DNA of 49,876 bases from Raja brachyura (lineage: Eukaryota), in assembly GCA_963514005.1 (NCBI GenBank), contig CAUPSL010001410.1, forward strand, positions 1-49,876, given 5' to 3'. The notes beneath the pieces were generated by a model. That model did no database searches and was not told where the DNA came from. It saw only the letters and a list, made by a program, of their open reading frames with translations. The position numbers and the translations under genes are program-made. Positions 2,629 through 49,291 of this stretch are shown piece after piece. The first letter of the stretch is position 1, and each line of letters begins with the position of its first letter.

Positions 2629-2695
2629 ATGCGCTCTCTCCGGCTCTGGCTCTGTCTCAGCTCGGTCCTGCTCTCGGTGTCAGTCCTGGGTTACA
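2629..2695 (+). CDS. Gene A exon 1, signal peptide MRSLRLWLCLSSVLLSVSVLGY
   Basis: ATG at 2629, hydrophobic core, phase-1 donor A|GTAGGT; paralogous exon at 44355-44415. Confidence 0.85.
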
Positions 2696-3787: not shown

Positions 3788-6700
3788 GATTTTTCGTATC
3801 ATGGTTGGACAATATCCGGTGCTGATGACGTATCTGCCGTGGAAGGGGCCTCCGCTGTGTTGCCGTGTACATTCACCCACCCACCCACTGATCACATCCT
3901 CACCGGCTCCGTGCTATGGCACAAGAGAAAGTCCGGGGCTGAGAGCGTTGTTTTTAACTGTACATATCCCGGCCCCGCACGCTCCCGGTGCGATGAAGTG
4001 ACACAGGAAGCCGGAGGGAGTCGGTTGCGATTCGCAGGGAACTTCACACAGAGGGATGTGTCAATAATGGTGGAGCGACTAAGCCGGGAGGACGATGGTG
4101 CTATGTATCGGTGCCAAGTGGACCTCAATATTGGACCATTTCACACTGTGGTTCCAACACGCCTGACTGTGAGATGTGAGAAACAATGCTTAAATGCTGT
4201 AGCTTTGCCCAGATCGCACGGGTCAAACGCTTCCCTGGCACGCTGATGATCAATAAATGTTGATCAAGCACGTCAAGGTGTGAAGCGCCGGGTCCCCCTC
4301 TTACTCCCTTTCCAGTGAATCCCGCTGCACAATGTTAAACAACAAATTAACCAACAAGCCTCTCCGTCGTTGGAGTGCAGGAGGTAACAGGAGCACCCGG
4401 GAAAACCCAACGCGGTCACGGGAGAATTAAAAAATCCATACAGACAGCACCCCTAGTCAGGACCGAACCCGGGGCCCTGGCGCTGTGATACAGCAACTCT
4501 ACCGGTGCACCACCGTGCCGCCCTTAAATAATGAATGGAATAAACATTACAAAAAAATGACTACGGCAGGGATAGAACTAGCAGCTCGACGCTCCATGAA
4601 ACAGGCGCTAATGGTTTGATAGAGAGGGGGGGGGGGGGGAAGAGAGGAGGAGGGAATTCTATTTTTGACAGCAGAGAACACATTGCAGTGATCTTAGAGA
4701 TCACTATTCAGGGACGGTCCAATGGGGCCTAATGGTTGCAACTGAGAAGCAAGAAGCTTCTTAAGAAGCATAGATAGAAACATAGAAAAATGGGAGCAGG
4801 AGTAGGCCATACGTCCCTTCAAGCCAGCACTGCCATGCAATATGATCATGGCTGATCATCCAAAATCAACACCCCGTTCCTGTTTTTCCCCCCATATCCA
4901 TTGATTCCTTTCACCCTAAGAGCAAAATTTAACTCTCCTGAAAACCTCCAGTGCATTGGCCTCCACTGCCTTCTGTGGTAGAGAATTCCAAAGATTAACA
5001 ACTCTCTGGGTGAAAAAGATTTTCCTCATTTCAGTCCTAAATAGCGTAAGCATTAATATTAAACCGTGGCCCTGGTTCTGGACTCCCCCAACATCGGGAA
5101 CATTTTTTCATGTATCTAGCTTGTCCAATCCCTTAAGAATTTTGTAAAGTTTCTATAAGATCCTCTCTCAACATCTCTCAACCACATTTTCAGGGAATAC
5201 AAGCCCAATTGAACCATTCTTTCCTCATATGTCCGTCCCGCCATCCCGGGAATTAGTCTGGTGAACCTGCACAGCACTTCTTCAATAGCAATAATGTCCT
5301 TCCTCAAGTTAGGAGACCAAAACTGCACATAATACCGCAGGTGTGGCCTCACTAGGGCCCTGTACAACTGCAGTAGGTCCTCCTTGCACCTAAACTCAAA
5401 TCCTCTCTCAATAAAGGCCAACATGCCATTAGCTTTCTTCACTCCCTGCTGTACCTGCATGCTTACTTACAGTGACTGGTGTACAAGCACATCCAGGTCT
5501 CGCTGCACCTAACGTTTTCCTAATCTGACACCATTCAGAGAATTATCTGCCTTCTTGTTGTTGCCACCAAAGTGGACAACCTCACATTTGTCCACATTTT
5601 ACTGCATCTGCCATGCACCTGCCCACTCACCCATCACATCCAAGTCTCACAGCATCCTCCTCGCCACACAGCTTTGTATCATCCGCAAACTTGGAGACAT
5701 TGCATTTAATTCCCTGATCTAAATCGTTAATATATTTTGTAAATAACTGGGGTCCCAGCACTGAGCCTTGCAGCACTCCACTGGTCACTGCCTGGCATTC
5801 TGAATACGACCAATTAATTCCTACTCTTTGCTTCCTGCCTGCCAACCAGTTCTCTATCCATGTCAATACCGGTCCCCCAATAACATGTGCTCTAAATTTG
5901 CACACTAATCTCTTGTGTGCGACCTTGTCAAAGGCTTTTTGAAAGTCCAGATATACCACATCCACTGGCTCTCCCTTATCCATTCTACTTGTTACATCCT
6001 CAAAAAATTCCAGAAAATTATTCAAGCATGATTTCCCCTTCATAAATCCATGCTGACTTTGACCGATCCTGTCACTGCTTTACAAATGAGCTGCAATTAC
6101 ATATTTTATCATCGACCTCAGCATCTTCCCCACTACCGACGCAAGGCTAACTGGTCTATAATTCCTTGTTTTATCTCCCCCTCCTTCCATAAAAAGTAGT
6201 TACATTAGCAACCCCCCAGTCCACAGGAACTGATTCAGAGTCGAGAGAATATTGGAAAATTATCACCAATGCATCCATGATTTCTTGGGCCACCTCCTTG
6301 AGTTCTCTGGGATGCAGACCATCAGGCCCTGGGAATTTATCTGCCTTCAGTCCCAACAGTTTTCATAACGCAATCTCCTGACTAATGTGGATTCCCTTCA
6401 GTCCTCCCTCCCACTAGATCATCTGTCCACTAGTATTTCTAGGAGATAGTTTTTGTCTTCCTTAGCGACCATAAAACATAGAAACATAGAAAAACATAGA
6501 AAATAGGTGCAGGAGTAGGCCATTCGGCCCTTCGAGCCTGCACCGCCATTCAATGTGATCATGGCTGATCATCCAACTCAGTATCCCATACCTGCCTTCT
6601 CTCCATACCCCCTGATCCCTTTAGCCACAAGTGCCACATCTAACGCCCTCTTAAATATAGCCAATGAACTGGCCTCAACTACCTTCTGTGGCAGAGAATT

Positions 6701-9700
6701 CCAGAGACTCACCACTCTCTGTGTAAAGAATGTTTTCCTCATCTCGGCCCTAAAGGAATTCCCCCTTATCCTTAGACTGTGACCCCTTGTTCTGGACTCC
6801 CCCAACATCGGGAACAATCTTCCGCCATCGAGCTTGTCCAACCCCTTAAGAATTTTGTAAGTTTCTATAAGGTCCCCCCTCAATCTTCTAAATTCCAGCG
6901 AGTACAAGCCGAGTCTACCAATCTTTCCTCATATGAAAGTCCTGACATCCCAGGAATCAGTCTGGTGAATCTTCTCTGTACCCCCTCTATGGCAAGGATG
7001 TCTTTCCTCAGATTTGGAGACCAAAACTGTACGCAATACTCCAGGTGTGGCCTCACCAAAACCCTGTACAACTGCAGTAGAACCTCCCTGCTCCTATACT
7101 AAAATCCTTTCGCTATGAATGCTAACATACCATTTGCTTTCTTCACTGCCTGCTGCGAAACAAAACTACTCGTTTAACTGTTCTGCCATTTCCTTATTTC
7201 CCATTATAATGTCACCTGTCTCTGATTGTACGGGACCAACATTTGGCTTCGCTAATCTTTTCCTCTTCACATATGTATTTAAGCTTTTACAGTCAGTTTT
7301 TATATTCCCCGCAAGCTTTCTTTCGTGCTCTATTTTCCCCCCTCTTAATTAACCCATTTGACCTCCTCCGTTAAATTCTAAATTTCTCCCAGTTCTCCGG
7401 TTTGCTGTTTCCTCTGAACAATGTATATGCCTCTTGCTTAAATTTAACACCATCGTTAATTTGCCACGATAGCCACGGTCGCGCCGCCTTTCCCGTGTTA
7501 TTTTTACGCCAGGCTGGGAAGAACAAATGTAATTCATCTATGCGATCTTTAAATCTTTGCCATTGCGTCTCCACCGTCACTCTTTAAGTATCATTTGCCA
7601 GTCTATCCCAGCCAACTGCCGTCTCATACCATCAAAGCCTGCTTTCTTTAAGTTCAAGACCCTAGTCTGTGAATAAACCGTGTCGCTCACCATCTTAATG
7701 CAGAATTCCATCATATTATGGTTACTGATGCCCAAGGGCCATAGGACAACACAATGCCCAGTCTAGGATGACCTGCCCACTAGTCGGTTTTTCTACTTAT
7801 TGGCTTAAAAAACCGTCCCGTATACATTCGAGAAATGCTCCTCCCCAGTGTTGTTAGCAATTTGGTTGGCCCAATCTATATGTAGATTATTTAGACTTTG
7901 TTGGGGTTATTCTAAGGGCACCTAAATCTGAACTGGAATTAGACGAACACACATGCATGGAGATGGTGGAGACTCTCTAGAATGTTAAGACAATTCACCC
8001 ACAAAACGTTGATACATTCCGGTGTCTGTCCTTCCCTCAGCTCCCGGCGGGAATTTCTCAGTGGTGACTGGGACTGAGGGGGCTTCGGCTACATTACTAT
8101 GTGTGTACCCACCGCCTCCGCTCAAGCACACCCCTCTCGCGTTCACATGGATGAGGAAGGATCCCTACCGACACATCGTCACGTTCAGACCCCAAGCTGA
8201 TGGATCCTGGGCGGCGGAGAACGGTGCAACACGGTTCGAGCTGGTCGGCAACCCAGAGCGGGGAAACGCCTCAACCAGGATAAAGCAGCTGAGTGTGCAG
8301 GACAGTCACGACTACCTGTGTCTGGTGCAGATCAAGAAACCGGATTCAAAACACCTTCATAATATACACCCCCCTTTTATTCATCAGTACCAGCGTGAGC
8401 TCCGGCTGCGGGTCACACCCGGTAAGAAACCATTGCCAAATTCTGCAGTTTACAGCGAGGATGTAGAGAGAGGGAGGGGAGCAGGAACAGAAACCCCGCC
8501 TCTCGGCTCGTAAAGTTGAAGATCAGGGACCTGGGGTGTGGGATCTCGGCTGCCACACCCAGCAGTAACTACATTGACCTGGACTTGTTAAACCAAGGTG
8601 CAGTCTGCTCCGCAAATTGCTATGAAAGATCTCGGTCAACCATTGACAACTGAATCTCATAATGAAGCATGTAATAGCAGAACACAAGACATAGGCTAGA
8701 GGGCTTAGGTTGCAGGTGAAATAGACAAAGGTTAAGTGAGATGTGCGGGGAAGTCGTTTTGCATAGGGGTGGTGGTTGCCTGGAACGCACTGGCAGAGGT
8801 GGTGGTGAAAGCAGGTACGTTGGTGGCGGTTAAGAGGCTTTTTGATAGGCTCATGGATATGCAGGGAATATGATGGTATGAATCCTGCGTGCAGACAGAC
8901 GAGATTAGTTTTCCTTGGCATAATATGTGGTACAGACACTGTGGGCCGAAGAGCAGGTTCATGTGCTCCAGTTTCCTATGTCCCGCGTAGATTTATGCAT
9001 GATGTGATGAGTAGAATTGATGAAGGCTAATTGATGTGGGGTGTTTGGATTTTCAGAAAAATCTCGGTCAAGTCCCGCATGGGAGATTGGTCAACAATCT
9101 GAAATCCGGAGTAGTCAGACGTAGGGTGCCATGCGCCCGTGATTGAAAATTGGTTCTCGGACGAGATAGCAAGTTGGGAATCAACGCATCTCTCGCAGGT
9201 TGACCAAATGTGGCCAATGGGATGCCATAGCGTACAATGCCGCGGCCCCATTTAGTCCCTAAATGTATTAGTGTTTTGTCTGAATGTTCAAATGACGGTG
9301 TTGCAATCTGACGGATAACAATAGAGCGGGTGAGACTCTGGGTGGGCAGCATGATGTAACGAAGGTTCAGTGTGTGTGGGCAGGCCGGTGGGTGGGTGGG
9401 AATGCGGCAGATGGAACGCGGCAGACATAAAAGCTTTTCACTGTACCTAGATACACTAAATAATAAACTAATTAAATTAATAATGACATTAAATGTGAAG
9501 TATGCCACATGGGTGAACTAGACGGAAAAGCAGAGTATTTGTTAACTGTGAGAAGTTGGGCCACCTTTGATGATCAGAGCGATATGGCAATGTGTGCATG
9601 TTCCACTGAAGGCCGACGGGCCGATATACAAGAGAACAGAACAGCTCTGGTTAGTTAATTTGTATTGGGAGATTATTTGTGTACGTCAATAAAAATGCCT

Positions 9701-12700
9701 TAACACTGTATAATTATATGGGGTCTGGGTGAGGTTCCACCTGCAGAACTGAGGGCAGCGTTGTTCTTTTTAAAGGAAATTGAGAAATCAACAATCAGGG
9801 ATTGCCCCGCCCCGAATCTCTTCCCGCTTTCACTCCTCAATGCAATCGTTCTGGAGGGGTTCCGACCAAAACATCCCCTGTGCATTGCCTCCACAGATGC
9901 TTCCTCACCCACCGCGTTACTCCATCTCTTTGCGTTTTGCACAATAAACATATTAATGGTGTCAAGGGAGTGCGGTGACGATGCACCCGGCTCGAGTGCT
10001 GTAGACCTGAGTTAGGATATGCAGATGTAGGATTTGTGTGAAACATATCCTCGCAGAGTGCATTTGCAAATGTTGTTTTGTTGCGTAGATTAAACAGCTT
10101 GAAGATGAGAATAAATTGTTGACCCCATCCGAATCGGTGGGAATCCGCGAAATCCGGAATCCCCCCCCCCCCCCCCCCCCCCCCCTCAACCTGCCCGCCC
10201 CAAACGACGTGGAGCGCCAGTCACTAAGTTCATTATAAACAGAAAAAGAGCAATTAGTAGATTTGGAAATGTAGAGTTTCTACACTGACATGAAATATTA
10301 GTTGTATCTCTCTCTCTCTCCGCAGTTCCTGCGTCATCCACCGATATACTCACACTAGTGACTGGGATGTTTACTCTGCTACTGTGAATACTGGCGTCTT
10401 ACCAATGATACTGCACATTCACAATATTAACCCATCGCTCTCGGATTTACCACCCATTTCAAGCATTTCAGTTCGTAGCCCTTTGAAATGGCACATTGTC
10501 CGTTGCCAATTAAGTTAGTACAGGAGGAACGATACACGATCGAGTCCTGTGGTCGTGATTGCTATGTGGTTTTTAATCTCCCTTTTCTTATTTTTTCACT
10601 CACACGTATTACCCTCACTTCCTTCAGAATAATTCTGCTGTTTAGCGACACATTATCACCACATCTATAAATGAGCAGCCTCCAATAGTACTCTCTCACT
10701 CTCTTTGCTAGAATCATGTTTGACCTCTCTCACTCTCTCTTCAGTCACACAGGTTGCCCCCATTGTGATCTTGAGTATTCCGCTTGGATTGAAAACCCTG
10801 GCACTGTTAGTGATGTATTTCATTTATTGTAGTTCCAAACTCAGGTATGTAACATTATGCATTCCTTTCTCTCTAAGTGACCAAAACATAATTAACAGAG
10901 AACCTTTGTGCGTTTAGTTTACTTCCGTTTAAAATACAGTGCGGAAAAAGGCCCGTTGAGTCAGAGCCGACCAGCGATCCTCTCACACTAACACCATCCT
11001 GCATACACTAAGGATAATTCACAATTATACCAAGTCAAATAGCCGGCAAACCTCTACGATTTGGAGTGTGGGAGGAAAGCGAACTGTGAGAAAGTCCACG
11101 CTAGTCAGAGGGAGAACGTACAAACTCCGTACAGACAGGACCCGTGGACAGAGCCGAGCCCGTGTCTCTGACGCTGTGAGGCAGCAACTCTCCAGTGCTG
11201 TGCCACCGTGCGTTCGTTCATGAGTCATAGGAGCAGTATTAGGCCAAAAGGCTAATCGAGTCTCCGTCATTCGGTCATGGCGCATCTATCTTTCCCTCTC
11301 AATCCCATTTTCCGGCCTTCACTTTCCACATTTTAACAGTGATGCACTTCAAAAAAAATATTTTACTGTGATAACTTTTGTATTTTTCCACGTTGAATTG
11401 CCTTCATGAATGCAAACTCACAATATATGCCTGGCAAAGCACTGCTTCCTCACCGGAGTAGAAGCCCAATACACTGTTGTCTTTGCCCATACCACCTGCA
11501 CTGAGACGCGTTGATAAGTCCTAATCACAAACCGAGATGGGATCGAAAAAGCATAATCACAAGGTCAAGTGACAGCAGCAGAATTAGGCCATACGGCACA
11601 TCAAATCTGCTGCGCCATTCAATCATGGCTGATCTATCTCTCCCTGATAACCTCACCCCCTCACCCCCCCCCCCCCCGGTATTTCCCCATAACCCTTAAC
11701 ACCCGTACTAACCCGCACTTATAGCCTTCCTTCACAGTGATCACTGTGGTGGATGTTTATGTTAAGTTCTATGGTGTATTGTGTCCTTTTAATTGTATGG
11801 TTGCATGGTAACTCAAATATCACGATACCTCAATTGGTGCATGTGACAATAAATGTGAACTTGAACTTGAACTTGAACTAATGAACAATCTATCTATACC
11901 TGCCTTAAAATTATCCATTTACCTGGCCTCCACAGCATTCTGTGGCAAGATTCTACAGATTCACAAGCCTAGACTAAATACACCTCTCCCCATCTCATTC
12001 CCAAAGGAACGTTCTTTAATTCTGAGACTATGTCGGTAAATTTCACTATTCGGTAAATTTCACTATTCGGTAAATTTCAATGAGGTCCACTATCATCCTT
12101 CTAAACTCCAGCGAGCACAGCTCTGGTGTCGTAAAAGGCTCATCATACGTTAACCCAGACCAATGGTACACCCGTCTCCTGGTCTGCAGTCCTGCTTCTA
12201 GAGCTAACAGCTCGACCCGAAACGTCACCTATTCCTTTTCCCCAGACATGCTGCCCGACCCACTGAGTTATTGCAGCTTGTTTTGTCTAGCTCGCTCATA
12301 TGTTTGGGTCATGATTAGACCTCCACAACCACCCCCTGCTCCGACATCCAATTTAATCCATAGAGTTGGGCAATCCAAGATTTTAGCAACCTAATACTAT
12401 TAAAATGAAACTAATTGTATGATAATTGTTGATAATCAGATTGCTCCTCAGATTCTAATCTCAGTCCTTTCCTGATCTACAACACTCTGCCATTCCTTCG
12501 CTCCACCGATTTCTAAACGAAGATCCCTCTGTCCCTCTATGTGTGTCGAACTGACAACAGTCGAAACAAAATGCTACACCTTCCCCCTGCAGAGATTAAT
12601 ATCCACCTGTCGTTCGCCCACCCATTTCAACATCTGATCAATATAATTATGTGTATATATACACACACTGAACTTTTTTTGGTCCCGTTATGTACTATGT

Positions 12701-25840: not shown

Positions 25841-28800
25841 GGGTTTGTTTAAGCGGGGCTTTGTTTAACAGAGGCCCAGGAGCCGTGGAGCAGGAGGAGT
25901 ACCCAATCTGCAACGTTCCAGCACACTTCAAAGAAAGTGGTCTGGAGGAAGCCGATGATTGGTGGAAGTGGACTAGAGGAAGCAGCTGATTGGGAGCAAC
26001 CCCAGGTTTGTATTTCTGCTTTCTGGTTAAAGGCAAAGATTTGTTCAGGGTTCAGTGAGCTAAGGGTTCAGTGAGCTGAGGGTTCAGTGAGTCATGGGTA
26101 CAGTGGGTTAAGGGTTCAGTGAGCCAAGGGTTCAGTGAGTTAAGGGTACAGCGAGCTAACGGTTCAGTGAGCTAAGGGTACAGTGAGCTAATAGTTCAGT
26201 GAGGTAAGGGTTTAGTGAGTTAAGGGTTTCGTGAGTTGAGGGTTCAGTGAGTTAATGGTACAGTGAGTTAAGGGTACAGTGAGTTAAGGGTTCATATAGT
26301 TAAGGATACAGTGAGCTGAAGGTACAGTGCCTTCTTTAGTAAAGGTACAGTTTAAAGGATTAGGATTTTTATAGCGTGAGTGAGTTGAGTTGATTTAATT
26401 TGGGGGTAAGCCTAGTCAGTTGAGATCGGCCCCATGGTTTGCTCATCCTGCAACATGTGGGAGATCAGGGATATGGTAGGTGTCCCTGGTGACTGCGTGT
26501 GCAGGAAGTATGTCCAGCTGCAGCTCCTGGCAGACCGCATTGAACGATTGGAGCTGCGGTTGGATTCATACTGGAGCATTCACGGTGCTGAGAAAGTCGT
26601 GGACAGCACGTACAGTGCGTTGGCCACACCGCAGGTAAACGTTAAGCGGACAGAAAGGAAACGGGTGGCCAGTAGCCAGCGTAGCAATAGGCAGACAGTG
26701 CAGGACCCCCCTGCGGTCATCTCCATCCTAAACAGATATACCATTTTGGATACTGTTGGGGAGGTGGCTCATCAGGGGAAGGCAGCAGCAGCCAAGTTCG
26801 TGGCACCATGCGTGGCTCTGCGGCACAGGAGGGTAGGAAAAGGAGTGGAAGGGCTATAGTAATAGGGGATTCAATTGTAAGGGGAATAGATAGACGTTTC
26901 TGCGGCCGCAAACGAGACTCCAGGGTGGTGTGTTGCCTCCCTGGTGCAAGGGTCAGGGATGTCACTGCGCGGCTGCAGAACATTCTGGAGGGGGAGGGTG
27001 AACAGCCAGTTGTTGTGGTGCACATTGGCACCGATGATAAAGGTAAAAAACGGGATGAGGTCCGACAAGGTGAGTTTAGGGAGCTAGGAGATAAACTTAA
27101 AACTAGGACCTCAAAGGTAATAATCTCTGGATTACTACCAGTGCCACGTGCTAGTCAGAGTAGAAATGGGAGGATATTGCAGATTAATACGTGGCTTGAA
27201 AAATGGTGCACTGGGGAGGGATTCATATTTCTAGGGCATCGGAACCCGTTCTGGAGAGGTGGGACCAGTACATGTAGGACGGTCTGCACCTGGGCAGGAA
27301 TGGAACCAATGTCTTTGGGGGAGTGTTTGTTAGTGCTGTCGGGGAAGATTTAAACTAATGTGACAGGGTAATGGGAGCATGAGCAGAGAGACAGAGGGGT
27401 GTAAAATGTGGGCAGAAGCAATAGGTAGCAAAGTGAAAAGTAAAAGTGGCAGGCAGACAAATCCAGGTCCACTTTTCAACATAATCAAAAAGGACCACTT
27501 TTCAACATAAGTTTATAAGGGGTAAGAGTGTTGCAAAAACGAGCCTGAAGGCCTTGTGTCTCAATGCAAGGAGCATTCGTAATAAGGTAAATGAGTTGAA
27601 TGTGCAGATAGTTATTAATTAATATGATATAGTTGGGATCACGGAGGCATGGCTCCGGGGTGATCAAGGCTGGGAGCTGAGCATCCTGGGATATTCCATA
27701 TTCAGGATGGATAGACAGAAAGGAAAAGGAGGTGGGGTAGCGTTGCTGGTTAGAGAGGAGATTAACGCAATAGAAAGGAAGGACATTAGTTTGGAGGATG
27801 TGGAATCGATATGGGTAGAGCTGCGAAACTCTAAGGGGCAGAAAACGCTAGTGGGAGTTGTGTACAGGCCACCCAATAGTAGTAGTGGAGTTGGGGATGG
27901 CATCAAACCGGAAATTAGAAATGCGTGCAACACGGGTAAAACAGTTATAATGGGTGACTTCAACATATAGATTGGGTGAATCAAATTGGCTGGGGTGCTG
28001 AAGAAGAGGAATTATTGGAATGTATGCGGGATAGTTTTCTAAATCAACATGTAGAGCATCCAACGAGGGAGCAGGCTATTCAAGACTGGGTATTGAGTAA
28101 TGAGGAAGGGTTAGTTAGCAGTCCTGTTGTGCGTGGCCCCTTGGGCAAGAGTGACCATAATGTGGTTGAGTTCTTCATTAGGATGGAGAGTGACATTGTT
28201 AATTAAGAAGCAAGGGTTCTAAACTTAAAGAAAGGTAACTTTGAGGGTATGAGACGTGAATTGGCCAAGATAGGCTGGCAATTGATTCTTAAAGGGTTGA
28301 CGGTGGATATGCAATGGAAGGCATTTAATTAATGCACGGATGAACTACAACAATTGTTCATCCCAGTTTGGCAAAATAATATATCAGTGAAGGTAGTGCA
28401 TCCATGGATACCAAGGGAAATCAGGGATAGTATCAAAAGAAAAGATGAAGCATAAAAATTAGCCAGAAAAAGCAGCCGACCAGAGGACTGGGAGAAATTC
28501 AGTCCAGCAGAAGCGGACAAAGGGCTTAATTAGGAAAGGGAAAATAAATTATGAAAGAAAACTGGCTGAGATCATCATAAAAACGGACTGCAAAAGGTTT
28601 TATAGGTATGTGAAGAGAAAAATATTAGTAACTAATGTAAAAACTAATGTAACCCCACTTTTTTTTTAAAAAGGAGGGAGAGAGAAAACGGGGAATTAGA
28701 CAGTTAGTCTAACATCGGTGGTGGGGAAAATGCTGGAGTCAGTTACTAAAGATGCGATAGCAGCACATTTAGAAAGTGGTGAAATTATTGGACAAAGTCA

Positions 28801-37569: not shown

Positions 37570-40500
37570 GGGTTGGTTTTAGCGGGGCTTTGTTTAACAG
37601 AGGCCCAGGAGCCGTTGGAGCTGAAGGAGTACCCAATCTGCAACGTTCCAGCACACGTCAAAAGAAGTGGTCTGGAGGAAGCGGACTAGAGGAAGCAGTT
37701 GATTGGGAGCAACCCCAGGTTTGTATTTCTCCTTTCTGGTTAAGGGCAAAGATTCGTTCAGGATTCAGTGAGTTAAGGGTTCAGTGAGCTAAGGGTACAG
37801 TGCCCTAATGGTTCAGTGAGTTAAGGGTTCAGTGAGTTACGGGTTCAGTGAGTTAAGTTAAGGGTACAGTGAGCTAAGGGTACAGTGCTTTTTTAGTAAA
37901 GGTACAGTTTAAAGGGTTAAGATTTTTATAGTGTGAGTGAGTTGATTTAATTTGGGGGTAAGCCATGACAGTTGAGATCGGCCCCATGGTTTGCTCATCC
38001 TGCAACATATGAGAGATCAGGGATATGGTCCGTGTCCCTGGTGACCACGATTGCAGGAAGTGTGTCCAGCTGCAGCTCCTGGCAGACCGCATTGAACGAT
38101 TGGAGATGCGGTTGGATTCATACTGGAGCATCCACGATGCTGAGAAACTCGTGAACAGCACGTACAGTGAGTTGGTCACACCGCAGGTAAACGTTCAGCG
38201 AACAGAAAGGGAACGGGTGGCCAGTAGCCAGCGTAGCAGTAAGCAGGTAGTGCAGGAGTCCCCTGCGGTCATCCCCCTTCTAAACACATATACCATTTTG
38301 GATATTGTTGGGGGAGATGGCTCATCAGGGGAAGGCAGCAGCAGCCAAGTTCATGGCACCGTGGGAGGCTCTGTGGTACAGGAGGGGAGGAAAAAGAGTG
38401 GAAGGTCTATAGTAATAGGGGATTCAATTGTAAGGGGAATAGATGGTCGTTTGTACGGCTGCAAACGAGACTCCAGGATGGTATGTTGCCTCCCTGGTGC
38501 AAGGGTCAGGGATGTCATTGTACGTCTGCAGAACATTCTGGAGGGGGAGGGTGAACATCCAGTTGGCGTGGTGCACATTGCACCAATGATATAAGTAAAA
38601 CACGGGATGAGGTCCTATAATGTGAATTTAGGGCACTCGGAGATAAACTTAAAAGTAGGACCTCAAAGGTAATAATCTCTGGATTACTACCAGTGCCACG
38701 TGTTAGTCAGAGTAGAAATAGGGGGATATTGCAGATGAATAAGTGGCTTGCAAAAAGGTGCAAGGGGGGGGGATTCAAATTTCTAGGGCATTGGAACCAG
38801 TTCTGGGGGAATTGAGACCAGTACAAACAGGACGGTCTGCACCTGGGCTGGAATGGAACCAATGTCTTTGGGGGATTGTTTGCTAGTGCTGTCGGGGAGG
38901 ATTTAATCTAATGTGGCAGGGGAATGGGAGCATGAGCAGAGAGACAGAGGGGTGTAAAATGAGGGTAGAAGCAACAGGTAGCAAGGTGAAAAGTAAAAGT
39001 GGCAGGCAGACAAATCCAGGGCAGAAATCAAAAAGGTCCACTTTTCAACATAATTGTATAAGGGGTAAGAGTGTTGTAAAAACAAGGCTGAAGGCTTTGC
39101 GTCTCAATGCAAGGAGCATTCGTAATAAGGTGGATAAGTTGAATGTGCAGATAGTTATTAATGAATATGATATAGTTGGGATCACGGAGACTTTGCACCA
39201 GGGTGATCAAGGCTGGGAACTGAACATTCTGGGATATTCAATATTCAGGAGGGATGGAGAAAAAGGAAAATGAGGCGGGGTAGCGTTGCTGGTTAGAGAG
39301 GAGATTAACGCAATAGAAAGGAAGGACATTAGCTTGGAGGATGTGGAATCGATATGGGTAGAGCTGCGAAACACTAAGGGGAAGAAAACGCCAGTGGAAG
39401 TTGTGTACAGGCCACCCAATAGTAGTAGTGGAATTGGGGATGGCATAAAACAGGAATTTAGAAATGCGTGCAACAAAGTTAAAACTGTTATAATGGGTGA
39501 CTTCAATCTACATATAGATTGGGTGAATCAAATTGGCAGGGGTGCTGAGGAAGTGGATTTATTGGAATGTATGTGGGATACTTTTCTAAACCAACATGTA
39601 GAGGAACCAACGAGAGAGCAGGCTATTCTAGACTGGGTATTGAGTAATGAGGAAGGATTAGTTAGCCGTCTTGTTGTGCGTGGCCCCTTGGGCAAGCGTG
39701 ACCACAATATGGTTGAGACCTTCATTAGGATGGAGAGTGACATAACTGATTCAGAAACAAGTGTTCTGAACTTAAAGGAAGGTAACTTCGAGGGTATGAG
39801 ACGTGAATTGGCCAAGATAGATTGGCAATTGATTCTTAAAGGGTTCACGGTGGATATGCAATGGAAGGCATTTAAAGACTGCATGGATGAACTACAACAA
39901 TTGTTCATCCCAGTTTGGCAAAAGAATAAATCTGGGAAGGTAGTGCATCCGTGGATAACAAAGGAAATCAGGGATAGTATCAAAACAAAAGATGAAGCAT
40001 ACAAATTAGCCAGAAAAAGCAGTCTACCAGAGGACTGGGAGAAATTCAGAGTCCAGCAGAAGAGAACAAAGGGCTTAATTAGGAAAGGGAAAACAGATTA
40101 TGAAAGAAAACTGGCAGGGAACATAAAAACTGACTGCAAAAGTGTTTATAGGTATGAGAAGAGAAAAAGATTAGTTAAAACAAATGTAGGTCCCTTGCAG
40201 TCAGGAACAGGTGAATTGATCATGGGGAACAAGGACGTGGCAGACCAATCGAATAACTACTTTGGTTCTGTCTTTACTAAAGAAGACATAACTAATCTGC
40301 CGGATATAGCAGCAGACCGGGGTCAAATGCGATGGAGGAACTGAGTGAAATCCAGGTTAGTCGGGAAGTGGAGTTAGGTAAATTGAATGGATTAAAAGCA
40401 GATAGGCTGCATCACAGAGTGCTTATGGGAGTAGCCCCAGAAATAGTGGATGCATTGGTGATAATATTTCAAAATTCTTTAGATTCTGAAGTAGTTCCTG

Positions 40501-44354: not shown

Positions 44355-44415
44355 ATGTGCTCTCTCCGGGTTTGTCTCTGCACCGTCCTGCTCTCCGTCT
44401 CAATCCACGGTTACA
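44355..44415 (+). CDS. Gene B exon 1, signal peptide MCSLRVCLCTVLLSVSIHGY
   Basis: ATG at 44355, phase-1 donor A|GTAGGT; 5'UTR aligns with 2588-2631. Confidence 0.85.
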
Positions 44416-47400
44416 GTAGGTGATTTTTTTTTTTTTTGGTTTACCCTGTCTCGTCATCTCGACCAATGTTCCGTTTCCCAGCTGTTTGTACTTTGGCTCA
44501 AAGGGGTGGGACGAATGGGGAATGTGGTGATATTGTCCATACCTAAGTGCCCTTCAGAAGGTGGTGGTGAGGATCCCTCTTGGTGAAGATTATCTGGCGA
44601 CGGCTAAGATGGAGGAAAATGCATATGGAGATCGACATTCATAAAACGGCGATAAGCAAGAGGGGAAAAGGTGACAGAGAGCAGGCGGGCATGTGGAGAG
44701 AGAATGAACAGCTGAGCAGCCGTGATGTTATTTTCCGGAGGTGCGAGCTGAAGGTGCCGACTGGTTTCCAGCTCCTACCATTGAGGTCGGGAGGAGATCT
44801 AATGGAGGGAATTAACACTGCGCACAGGGAGGGTGTCCCCATTGGTGGACAGAGAAGAGATGACGATAGAGAATGGGGGTGATTGGGCAAGGAACCAAGT
44901 GTGTTGCTGGGGAACATGAGTCCTCGCGGGGAGCGGCTCCACTGGGACGCGGCGCCGGCAGCGGGAGCGGGGGTGGGCGGTGGAGGAGACGGTTAGATTT
45001 AACCGACGGTATGTGACAGTATGGAACTTCCACGGCTGTGTGTTGAGAATGTGGAGAAGTCCACTGGCTGGATTGATGTTACATGGAGTCAGTATAGAAC
45101 CGATGGACCGAATGGCCGTCTCCACTGTGAATCTATTATGTGACAGTGAGGGAATCCCAAGAATCCATCTCCATCCCCGGTCCTGCAAAATGTCCACACA
45201 TTTCCCCTCCCCAGAAAGTAAATCAGCAACATTATAAAAACCTACTGACCCGGGGAACAGACGCGAATTACATATCCATGAACAGTTGATTATATCCCAG
45301 CTTGCAAACCACTCCCCGTGTATTACTATCTGTATCTGTCCCACAGACATCTGAGGACATCGCTTGTGACAACACCCCGGGAACAGTTTGGATTTGGAAC
45401 TCCATACCTATACTCGTTGCAATATTAACCCCCCCCCCCCCCCCTCCATCTCTCTCCCTCTCTCTCTCTTTCTCTCTATTTCTCTCTCTCTCCCTGTAGA
45501 TGTTTCGTACAATGGTTGGACACTGTCCGGTGCTGATGAGGTATCTGCCGTTGAAGGGGCATCCGCTGTGCTGCCGTGTACATTCACCTACCCACCCACT
45601 GATCGCAACGTCACCGGCTCCGTGTTGTGGTACAGGTTGCGATCATGGACACGCAGCCTTGTGTTTAACTGCACATATGCCGGACCCGGCCGCCCCCGAT
45701 GCGATGAAGTGACACAGAAGGCCGGAGGAGGTCGGTTCAAATTCGTGGGGAACCTCAGAGAGGGAGATGCCTCGATACTCGTGGAGCGACTGAGACGGGA
45801 GGACAGGGATGAGTACCGATGCCGCCTGGAGCTCAGTGTTGGGAATTTTCAATCTGCGATTCCGACGCGGCTGACTGTGGAAGGTGAGAACAATGCTCGG
45901 AGACTGTCGCTGCCCCAGAGCTCACGGACCGTCGGTTACCCGGTACAATGCTGATCAATACATGTTGATGGTTCAATTCAATAATACTGTATTCTCACGT
46001 ACCTAGGTACAGTGAAATACTTTGTTTTGCAGACAACCCTGAAAGGGGGGGGGGGGGGGGGGGGGAGCTGAAGCCGGGGGTTCCTGCTCCTGATTCCTAT
46101 CCAGTTAATCCGTCTGGACAGAGGGCTCCTGGAGTAGACGAGGCGCCGGCCTGGTCGACAGTCAAATACAGGTGGATTGTGTAAACCGAGAGATAGGAAG
46201 ATGGTGATCACCTTGTTAGAATTATTCTCCAACTATTAATGGCAACCGAGGCGCCCAGTCGGAAAGGAGGTGTCGGTGCCCAATCCCCTGTGGGCGGTTC
46301 TCCCTCTCGGTGTGGAGTTCACCGCTTCACACATTGAATATTCCCCGTGGAGAACAGTGTTGGGATCCGGGTAAGCGCGGGTTCGCTGTCGCTCAGGGCA
46401 GCGCCGAACGAGAGCCGACCCTTCAGCGGCGACCAGTGACACCTGATGCAGAGCCAGCCTTGAATGTATCCAGTCCCCTGCGCCCTCTGACCCACCTTCC
46501 CTGGGACCGTCACTGTCAGCTCCACACTGGGCACCTCCTCCACCCACTCCCACAGGGAGAGGTCGGTACAAGACGATTCACCCACAGAACGTTGATACAT
46601 TCCGGTGTCTATCCTTCCCTCAGGTCCCGGCGGGAATGTCTCCGTGGTGACTGGGACTGAGGGGGCTTCGGCCAAGTTACCATGTGTGTATCAACCATCC
46701 CAGTATGACCGCAGCGCCCTCACGGTCACATGGATGAGGAAGGATCCCTACCGACACATCGTCACGTTGAGACCCCAAGCTGATGGATCCTGGGCGGCGG
46801 AGAACGGAGCAACTCGGTTCCAGCTGGTCGGGGACCCAGAGCGGGGAAACGCCTCAACCAGGATAAGGCAGCTGAGGGTGGAGGACAGTGACGGCTACCT
46901 TTGTCTGGTGGAGTTCAGAAAACCGGAAAACTACGATGCGACAATGTACGTCGATGAAAAGTTCAGGAGCAGCGTACACCCCCCGTACACCCATCAGTAC
47001 CAGCGTGAGCTCCAGCTGCGGGTCACACCCGGTAAGAAACCATCGACACATTCTGCCGTGTAGAGCGAAGGTGCAGAGGGAGGGAGGAGAACAGGAACAG
47101 GAAACCCGGTCTCCCGGGACACAGTGGGCGCAGCCTCGCATCTGGAGGGTCAGATACAACTCCAGAGAAAAGTCAAACATAGTTGATCAATCTATTGGAG
47201 TCCTTTGGCGAGGTGAGGAGTTGAATGCCTAAGAGGGAACAAGGGACTGGGGTACGTTTGGATTCTCAGAAGGATCTAGGTTGGGTCCCAGCCAGGAGTT
47301 TGGGAACCAGGCGCGAGAAGGCGGCATTAAGTCAACGCACTGTCGGGGATTGAGAAGCAGTTATCGAGCAGAATGTGGAATGAAATATCTGGATCTCTGT

Positions 47401-49291
47401 CACGTTGAGAGTCTGCGGCTGGCGAGGTACTTCAGAGATTGGTTCTTGTCTCAGCTATTCATAGTCTGCATCAGCGAGTTGATTGAAGGAGGGGAATTGT
47501 CAGGTCTGATGATGGAGGTCTGAAGTGCCTTGGGACTGTGAGAGGGCAGGGGGACATGGAGATTCGGGAAAGGTGGACAAGTTGAGCGAGTGGGTGGGAG
47601 CATATTATGGAATAAAATGTGGCAAATTATCCACACGGCTGAATAAACATAAATCCAGTGTTTATTAAATTGTGAGGGATCGGGTGCTATGGATGTTCAA
47701 AAGGGCCTGAGTGTGCTTGTTCTCATGTCAATAAAGTATGATGTACTGATGTGGAAGAGTCGAGAAAGGCAATAGTTGGTCAGGTTATATCAAGAGAGGA
47801 TTTATATTCAAGGCTTGAGATCTTTTACTGCAGTTATATAAGGATCTAGCGGGACCTCACCTGCAGTTCTGTGGCGGACTTTCCTATTCTTAACTATAAT
47901 AAAGTCACGATTAGTGTGGAGCGAGTGTAGTGAAGATTCAGTCACTGTTTCCCGGAAGGGCAGGTTGATTGAAGATCAGCGGAGATTGAGTAGACCAGAG
48001 GCCGTGGAGAATGCAGGTATAGGAACATTGAGCAGAAAAAAAGCTACTGGGGGAACTCGGTAGGCCAGGTAACATGTCTGGTAGGAAATTGGCGAATGAC
48101 AATTCATATCGAGACCTTACCTCAAAACTGGATAAAACGACATATTTGGATTTCCTTCTACAGTTGCCTGACTTCCTGAGCGCTGTCAGCAGGCTGTTAT
48201 TTGCTCGAGCAGATTAGGCCTGTATTGAGTGTAGAGAATGAGAGGTGATCTTAGTGAAGCAAACACCATTTGTACATTGTCGATCGCTCCCCTTTCCCAT
48301 TGACCACTCTGACCTCTCTCACTCTCTCCTCAGTCACGCAGAGTTACATGGTTCTGATCCTGTGGATCCCTCTAGGATTGAAAACCATTTTCCTTTCAGT
48401 GATGTGTCTTATCTTCTACCGTGACAAACTCAGATATGTAATATTGCTTTTCTATGCATGTAATATAAACTGGGGTGTGATTGAAAAATGTGAGGCTTCC
48501 TAGGCCGCGCCAACCATCGATCATCCATACACTAGTTCCATCCCAGCACTATAGGGGGCGTTTGCAGAGGACAATTATCCTACAAACCCGCATGTATTTG
48601 GGATATGAGAGGGACAAAAAACATGCGGTCACGGGTAGCACGTGGAAACTCCGCACAGACAGCACCCGTGATCAGGATCGAACCCGGGACTCTGCGCTGC
48701 AAGGCAGCATCTCAACAACTGCGCCACCGTGGTACCCCTGTCTCGTTGGCAATACATGGTTCAGGTGCATCATGTACCTACAGATGGAAGAACAGCTTCT
48801 TACCCGCTCAGGCGATTTGTGAAACCTCTCAAAAGATAAGAATGTATTCCAGATCCCCCAGTCTACCATGATGGGGCCTTTCTCTGTAAGACTATATTCT
48901 GCCCGGCTTGGCTCTATGGAATAATTTATCTGGATGACACGCGAAACAATGCTTTTTCCTTGTACCTGTGTCAAGGTGACGATAATAAACCAATATCTTG
49001 CTCCAGGTCAGACAATCCTCCTCACTGTCAACACAACGACCAACATACGTGTCCCCTGTTAAGTAAATCACCTGTTTCGCATATTGAAGTCCACCTCAAA
49101 TTTAGTTGTCAAACGCTGACATTGACAATAACGTCTCTGCTCTGGAGAATTCCGTTGAAATATCCGTCCGTCTCTCTTCACAGATTCAAATGGCGGCTGT
49201 GAATGGTGATGCCAGAAATGGCCATGTGGTACAAATTACCGAGGCTTGTTTTAATTGGTCTTGTTGTGTCCTCAGCAAGCGTGGAAACTGA
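44355..49291 (+). CDS. Gene B: paralogous Siglec-15-like V-V receptor; exons 44355-44415, 45500-45883, 46624-47031, 48334-48433, 49276-49291; TM-exon donor mutated
   Basis: Exon-by-exon homology with gene A, same phases, open frames. Non-canonical AG|ATATGT after the TM exon. AATAAA at 49455-49460. Confidence 0.75.
45500..45883 (+). CDS. Gene B exon 2, Siglec-15-like V-set domain (V1) retaining the F-strand Arg (YRCRLE)
   Basis: About 64% aa identity to gene A V1 (hand count, 83/129); (CT)n with tgtag acceptor; donor G|GTGAGA. Confidence 0.92.
46624..47031 (+). CDS. Gene B exon 3, second V-set domain (V2) with a 9-aa longer F-G loop
   Basis: ccctcag acceptor, KLPC / VTW / DSDGYLC motifs, donor G|GTAAGA; 408 nt versus 381 nt in gene A. 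Confidence 0.92.
48334..48433 (+). CDS. Gene B TM exon with central Lys (VTQSYMVLILWIPLGLKTIFLSVMCLIFYRDKLR)
   Basis: Acceptor region nearly identical to 10721-10744; Lys codon 48381-48383; donor +1 is A (48434), not G. Confidence 0.82.
48500..48737 (-). mobile_element. HE1-type SINE
   Basis: caggatcgaacccggg B-box on the minus strand. Confidence 0.7.
49276..49291 (+). CDS. Gene B terminal coding exon (SKRGN* in phase 2; ASVETDPSEEAEQTSVPTAVQPASQ* to 49352 in phase 1)
   Basis: cctcag acceptor homologous to 13255; downstream AATAAA at 49455. Confidence 0.5.

Follow-up and report, generated by a model that had tools for sequence, protein, structure and literature searches.

Siglec-15 is studied as a conserved activating Siglec and a target in cancer immunotherapy, and its second domain is of the C2-set type. 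The paired receptors PILR alpha and PILR beta likewise have related ectodomains, one form with an inhibitory tail and the other with a charged transmembrane anchor. As described in PMC7226832, the transmembrane (TM) Lys of Siglec-15 couples the receptor to DAP10/12, and the structural work reported in PMC10264397 places C142 and R143 at the F-strand site and finds that the R143A substitution abolishes binding. Natural loss of this essential Arg is reported in PMC6288428 and PMC7379906 for human Siglec-XII (R122C), for SIGLEC17 and for great-ape Siglec-5/14, in which the Arg is replaced by His or Tyr. In the clearnose skate, PMC3031540 describes the MDIR, whose V domains resemble those of CD300, TREM and pIgR.

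We analysed a window of 49,876 nucleotides from Raja brachyura, i.e. positions 1 to 49,876 of the forward strand of contig CAUPSL010001410.1 (assembly GCA_963514005.1). It carries two genes, referred to here as A and B, each with two V domains (V1 and V2). A first-pass annotation of the window had claimed that the sialic-acid-binding Arg was lost from V1 of gene A and kept in V1 of gene B. The features of gene A are as follows:

2629..2695, + strand: signal-peptide exon with ATG at 2629 and a phase-1 GT donor; matches the N-terminus of the Leucoraja protein P0007
3789..4175, + strand: V1 exon, a Siglec-15-like V-set domain (Pfam V-set E 3.5e-9; best PDB match 7zoz; joined to V2 as by splicing in X1 and X3 run contigs)
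4115..4117, + strand: Gln codon CAA at the Siglec essential-Arg site (from alignments; same letters in 4/4 runs)
8041..8421, + strand: V2 exon, V-set, with Leu after the F-strand Cys (Pfam V-set; its first bases join position 4175 in X1 and X3)
10745..10844, + strand: TM exon with Lys in IPLGLKT and an intact GT donor (exon reading and paralogue comparison)

The landmarks of gene A V1 are W6, the Cys pairs C26/C108 and C57/C67, F117, and Gln109 at the essential-Arg site. Siglec-15 (7zoz) was the best PDB sequence match of V1 from both genes (E 4e-14 for gene B and 3e-11 for gene A), and when the R. brachyura genome was queried with mouse Siglec-15 the family to which they belong was the first match. 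An AlphaFold model of gene A V1 (mean pLDDT 84.2, with Gln109 lying inside strand 104-112) also placed Siglec-15 first, both in Foldseek and in VIA alignment (Z 17.2, with an rmsd of 2.1 over 119 residues), a fold match that was tied within 1 Z with MPZL1/P0, i.e. with generic V domains; PILR was a lower-ranked match (4nfb, Z 14.7). Both V1 domains have equivalents of Siglec-15 W44, of C64-C142 and of the extra C95-C104 (the C'-C'' Cys pair), both have Phe in place of the G-strand aromatic Y154, and the TM Lys lies in PLGLK in both genes and in LGLK in mammalian Siglec-15. R143 is present in gene B and absent in gene A. Unlike Siglec-15, the elasmobranch family has no YENL-type tail and forms a multigene cluster with inhibitory-type members, and domain 2 of both genes is a V-set (Pfam E 1.8e-12 and 4.4e-14). 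Because domain 2 is a V-set, we describe genes A and B, on sequence grounds, as Siglec-15-like and not as demonstrated Siglec-15 orthologues.

A broad tree placed the family among Siglec-15-like sequences and apart from the Siglec-like genes of C36, with poorly resolved branching as regards orthology. SIGLEC15 has SLC14A, EPG5 and ATP5F1A as neighbours on human chromosome 18; in R. brachyura, urea-transporter genes lie at C1:55.0-55.1 Mb, an ATP synthase alpha match lies on C471, and the family is on C3, C987 and C1459. On the one side that was read, the 200 kb beyond the C1 urea-transporter genes held no Siglec-15-like match. The PDB matches of V2 include B7-H3, Siglec-15 and pIgR, with Siglec-15 being the best match of V1; the MDIR was compared by its description only, and membership of the family in that group may still apply.

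The codons at the site were as first annotated: gene A has CAA (Gln, in YRCQVD) and gene B has CGC (Arg, in YRCRLE, 45823..45825 on the + strand). In phmmer alignments, the Siglec-15 Arg that follows the F-strand Cys (7zoz chain residue 124, which is R143 in a construct starting at residue 20 as described in PMC10264397) paired with the Arg of gene B and the Gln of gene A; the Arg of sialoadhesin (YNFRFE) and that of Siglec-8 (YFFRLE) also paired with the gene B Arg, and a multiple alignment gave the same register. The alternative that the Arg before the F-strand Cys is the essential one was ruled out, as the Siglec-15 rows carry Phe or Tyr at this position and only 53/89 family V1 domains have an Arg there. 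The annotation that both V2 domains carry Leu at the site was also correct (YLCLVQ in gene A, YLCLVE in gene B), and the same holds for 81/84 pattern-matched family V2 domains, with Arg in 0/84.

An assembly error or a private allele was rejected as an unlikely source of the gene A Gln, because no letter other than CAA was seen at 4115-4117 in 4/4 runs from three organisms and because P0007 also has Gln at the site. One-step CpG decay of the Arg codon was likewise ruled out for gene A, since the Arg codons of the paralogues are CGC or CGT and the change from CGC to CAA takes two base changes. P0007 is the sister of gene A in the V1 tree (85% identical), and the relatives that share the one-residue insertion of gene A before strand F, i.e. 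Amblyraja P0009 and the pseudogene L010, keep the Arg. With the Arg of Siglec-15 as outgroup, loss along the gene A lineage is the parsimonious direction of change.

By its exon structure gene A is intact, and it is probably not decaying. The reading frame carries through all four of its exons, the splice sites are unbroken, and contigs of runs X1 and X3, from two organisms, join the end of V1 at 4175 directly to the start of the V2 exon, as predicted for a splice; contigs of runs X4 and X5 continue past 4175 into the intron. On the basis of these spliced contigs gene A is very likely transcribed, with the qualification that X1 and X3 are not recorded as RNA and that X1 is possibly the assembly's own sample. 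Coding differences in organisms B and C were synonymous in 4/5 cases (p = 0.015), the dN/dS of V1 against nine paralogues (0.46-0.76) also speaks for maintenance, and a pseudogene is unsupported by the exon structure, the contigs and these differences alike. The part of the window downstream of gene A yielded no homologue of the short tail exon; reading through the TM exon would give a 24-residue tail, and the Leucoraja orthologue model reads through the intron instead.

The first-pass annotation had also proposed that the differences between the two V1 domains cluster in the C-C' and F-G regions around the site. The count bears this out (17/22 positions differ in these regions and 29/106 elsewhere; Fisher p = 2e-5, the regions having been delimited once the alignment was in view), but comparison with the family divides the claim. 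Among 359 matched pairs in which both members have the Arg (pairs that are not independent), the A/B difference in C-C' was equalled in 48.5% and the difference in F-G in only 1.4%. The C-C' clustering was therefore rejected as a sign of ligand change, being family-wide hypervariability, and the F-G part of the proposal stands: judged from these alignments, the divergence of the gene A F-G segment is unusual for the family. Against P0007, gene A differs at just 2/22 of the C-C'/F-G positions, the other 20/22 being common to both, and among 253 matched pairs, which average 43% difference over these positions, only 1.6% were as low; these pairs are mostly paralogues, although two likely orthologue pairs also give 41%. 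The ligand face of gene A thus appears to have changed and then to have been conserved.

Since Gln replaces the essential Arg, canonical binding of sialic acid by gene A is likely lost, and the conservation of the ligand face suggests that this gene likely binds something else. The reading we prefer, and consider probable on present evidence, is that gene A is intact, is very likely transcribed and encodes a predicted activating receptor, one that no longer binds sialic acid in the canonical way and has probably come to recognise a different ligand, in a family whose inhibitory members would keep the Arg for recognising self sialoglycans. The annotation had left open whether gene A changed its ligand or lost binding; the absence of the canonical Arg stands, and the spliced contigs together with the Gln and the ligand face conserved in Leucoraja would favour a changed ligand over decay. 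Simple loss with no new ligand, which would make gene A an activating-type orphan that is under relaxed selection at the binding site, survives only through folding constraints or by chance and is in the course of being lost, would fit the dN/dS of its V1 (0.46-0.76 against nine paralogues, with values of 0.5-0.7 indicating weak constraint), the frequent breakage of activating-type copies in R. brachyura (a stop in L010, frameshifts in L011-L013 and a TM frameshift in L006) and the precedent of Siglec-XII, which according to PMC6288428 and PMC7379906 has lost its Arg and is being eliminated. We nevertheless consider it unlikely: the Gln and 20/22 ligand-face residues are held in common with Leucoraja despite lying in the most variable loops of the family, the codon change takes two steps, and the spliced contigs come from two organisms.

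Loss of the canonical Arg need not be loss of all anion binding. Gene A keeps W6 and F117 (equivalents of W44 and Y154), the Arg before the F-strand Cys (R107) and, in the same region, a basic C-C' loop (HKRK, with K45, R46 and K47), which may allow some remaining or non-canonical binding of anions. Sialylated or other anionic glycans might accordingly still be bound by gene A at a site that has shifted or at a second one (the Arg before the Cys, the HKRK loop or the V1-V2 interface), with A and B differing in specificity and not in sugar class; we rate this as improbable. Siglec-6 offers a parallel, as PMC10122656 reports that its R122A mutant binds sialylated glycolipids. Set against this, the pre-Cys Arg is present in only 42/64 of the family members that keep the essential Arg and is Phe in mammalian Siglec-15, and, according to PMC10122656 and PMC10264397, most Siglecs no longer bind once the canonical Arg is gone. 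The earlier statement that only V1 of gene B can be a sialic-acid lectin was nonetheless too strong, given the binding without a canonical Arg reported for Siglec-6 (PMC10122656). In PMC7226832, conversely, zebrafish Siglec-15 bound the tested glycans weakly even though the Arg is described there as conserved to lower vertebrates. Together these two cases indicate that this one residue decides binding in neither direction.

Gene B, which has the Arg, consists of the following features:

44355..44415, + strand: signal-peptide exon (exon reading)
45500..45883, + strand: V1 exon, a Siglec-15-like V-set domain with the essential Arg (Pfam V-set, phmmer)
45823..45825, + strand: essential-Arg codon CGC, equivalent to R143 of Siglec-15 (phmmer alignment)
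46624..47031, + strand: V2 exon, with Leu after the F-strand Cys (Pfam V-set)
48334..48433, + strand: TM exon with Lys (PLGLK); the donor that follows, 48434-48435, is AT, not GT
49276..49291, + strand: homologue of a short cytoplasmic-tail exon, SKRGN and then a stop (resembles the tail region of L072)

The tail region is 90% identical to that of the paralogue locus L072 over 306 bases. The TM-exon donor is GT in the six other family TM exons compared, including that of gene A; in gene B, reading through the TM exon gives a 23-residue tail, and the next GT lies 4 bases beyond the AT donor. Gene B likely keeps the canonical site, to judge from its sequence, and its integrity is uncertain because of the GT to AT change. 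Genes A and B are distant paralogues (V1 dS 0.43). Because both carry the TM Lys they do not form an on/off pair, unlike the members of the paired Siglecs, and the proposals that they are an inhibitory/activating pair or haplotype copies were both rejected on the TM Lys and the dS.

V1 exons of the family were found in R. brachyura at C3:128.9-133.5 Mb, on C987 and on C1459 (the window); parts of the C3:128.9 Mb region recur nearly unchanged on C987. In protein searches, 93 elasmobranch proteins spanning sharks and rays came first and mammalian Siglec-15 next, and the named proteins nearest to genes A and B are from skate. The architecture is V1 plus V2, followed in some members by a TM Lys with a short tail and in others by a neutral TM with tyrosine motifs. 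TM-Lys genes and tyrosine-motif genes with related ectodomains occur in the same genome, as in paired receptors, and like the paired Siglecs 5/14 and 11/16 the family places related ectodomains on an inhibitory tail or a charged TM anchor. We therefore regard it as an expanded set of elasmobranch paired receptors, with activating-type and inhibitory-type members predicted from the TM and tail sequences. A literature search of partial coverage found no paper on this family, and a search for DAP10-family genes gave a best match of only E >= 0.175.

Several further observations concern the make-up of the family. V1 was missing from 19/93 protein models; P0070-P0072, P0077, P0078, P0081, P0082, P0089 and P0092 have V2 and the TM Lys and no V1, and are V1-less genes or splice forms. 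Broken copies (L010, L011-L013, L009/L016 and L061) show stops, frameshifts or partial exon duplication. Eight domains have Trp, Phe or Tyr instead of the canonical V1 Cys on strand B (L002:1501-1881 on C987, P0012, P0017, P0021, P0022, P0026, P0036 and P0041), 7/8 of which keep the essential Arg.

We aligned 90 V1 domains (80 from 74/93 proteins and 10 full-length V1 exons of R. brachyura, leaving out the broken or partial L009-L013), one of which was gapped at the site. The essential Arg was present in 64/89 domains and absent from 25/89 (28%), where it was replaced by His (7), Asn (5), Gly (4), Gln (3), Ser (2), Tyr (2), Lys (1) or Cys (1). The contrast between genes A and B, presented as special in the first-pass annotation, is therefore not so: 25/89 family V1 domains lack the Arg, and the two genes are distant paralogues. 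Parsimony gave at least 11 changes at the site, with the non-Arg domains in 11 separate clades, on a V1 tree of 129 columns that is poorly resolved (32/89 inner branches open). As in the primate Siglecs, Arg loss occurs in a fast-evolving cluster, and His, Tyr and Cys recur as replacements.

One reading of these counts is that the family binds no sialic acid, that the Arg is inherited or structural and that the contrast between Gln and Arg says nothing about glycans. The 28% of V1 domains without the Arg, the protein models without V1 and the poor binding of tested glycans by zebrafish Siglec-15 (as reported in PMC7226832) are consistent with this, yet we think it very unlikely, as the Arg is retained in 64/89 domains from sharks to rays, including 29/29 tyrosine-motif domains, and the equivalents of W44, Y154 and C95-C104 are kept alongside it.

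In a first classing by tail, non-Arg domains made up 16/33 of the activating type and 2/36 of the inhibitory type, with 20 domains unclassed (Fisher p 6e-5); of the two inhibitory-type exceptions, one had no TM in its model and the other no tyrosine motif. In a strict motif classing, refined after this first pass and leaving 25 domains unclassed (8 of them non-Arg), the Arg was present in 29/29 tyrosine-motif, 18/35 TM-Lys and 17/25 unclassed domains. The rows of all these domain counts are related by descent, and gene conversion may blur the tail assignments. Counted by clade, 7 of the 11 non-Arg clades have TM-Lys members, 0 have tyrosine-motif members and 4 are unclassed, giving an event-level binomial p of 0.014, or 0.038 if the neutral-TM P0057 is counted against. 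Independent-pair tests of tail type against Arg loss gave median p values of 0.5 and 0.625, with only 5-6 supported pairs and hence little power. The excess of Arg loss in TM-Lys members is thus suggestive, not proven, at the level of sequence comparison.

The pattern within R. brachyura is similar: the inhibitory-type L003, L004 and L005 all keep the Arg, and it is absent in 4/7 TM-Lys genes (A, L006, L014 and L015). The TM exon of the non-Arg L006 is frameshifted, so that some Arg losses reflect decay. L014 and L015 (C3:128.99 and 133.48 Mb) belong to a divergent TM-Lys subfamily with Asn at the site, and the clade of this type, with Leucoraja, Pristis, Narcine and stingray members, lacks the Arg throughout. 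The primate Siglecs with Arg loss are CD33-related, and their losses also hit the inhibitory Siglec-5 and Siglec-12; the elasmobranch losses, unlike these, fall on TM-Lys members and spare every tyrosine-motif domain.

A mechanism can be proposed from Siglec biology. The TM Lys would recruit an ITAM adaptor of the DAP12/DAP10 type, and tyrosine-motif members would keep the Arg so that sialic acid of the host is recognised as 'self'. For their part, activating members would be free, or even favoured, to drop the Arg, as firing on self sialoglycans would be useless or harmful; some of the Arg-less members would then decay and others, like gene A, would be kept with a changed specificity, the new ligand being most plausibly microbial or non-sialylated. 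In its fullest form, which we put forward tentatively as a possibility, the Siglec-15 lineage would have given rise in elasmobranchs to V-V paired receptors in which inhibitory members are locked on 'self' sialic acid and activating members have dropped the Arg at least 7 times and been retargeted, gene A being one of these, conserved between genera of skates and carrying, on the Siglec face, a new site for a non-sialic ligand.

Taken alone, the Gln of gene A is one more case of a known event, i.e. natural Arg loss in Siglecs. The family as a whole, an old branch that has expanded in elasmobranchs, comprises both signalling types and offers many natural replacements of the essential Arg. It is hence a ready series with which to ask what keeps the activating counterparts of receptors for 'self' in existence, and if the Siglec scaffold can be retargeted to other ligands.

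More Siglec-15-like V exons lie near the family (L019, L021-L026 and L028, at C3:120.3-120.4 and 128.4 Mb); L019 has YFCRVE and no C'-C'' Cys pair, and groups with P0142, P0174 and P0249. Other clusters of V exons scoring against mouse Siglec-15 are present on C50, C51, C36 and C47, with more than 20 on C50 and C51. Within the window, the open reading frame list, inspected by eye, has many LINE-type reverse-transcriptase/endonuclease-like fragments at about 5100-7200 and 14000-43300, i.e. in introns and in the 33 kb between genes A and B, where 26207-28639 resembles 37760-40188.
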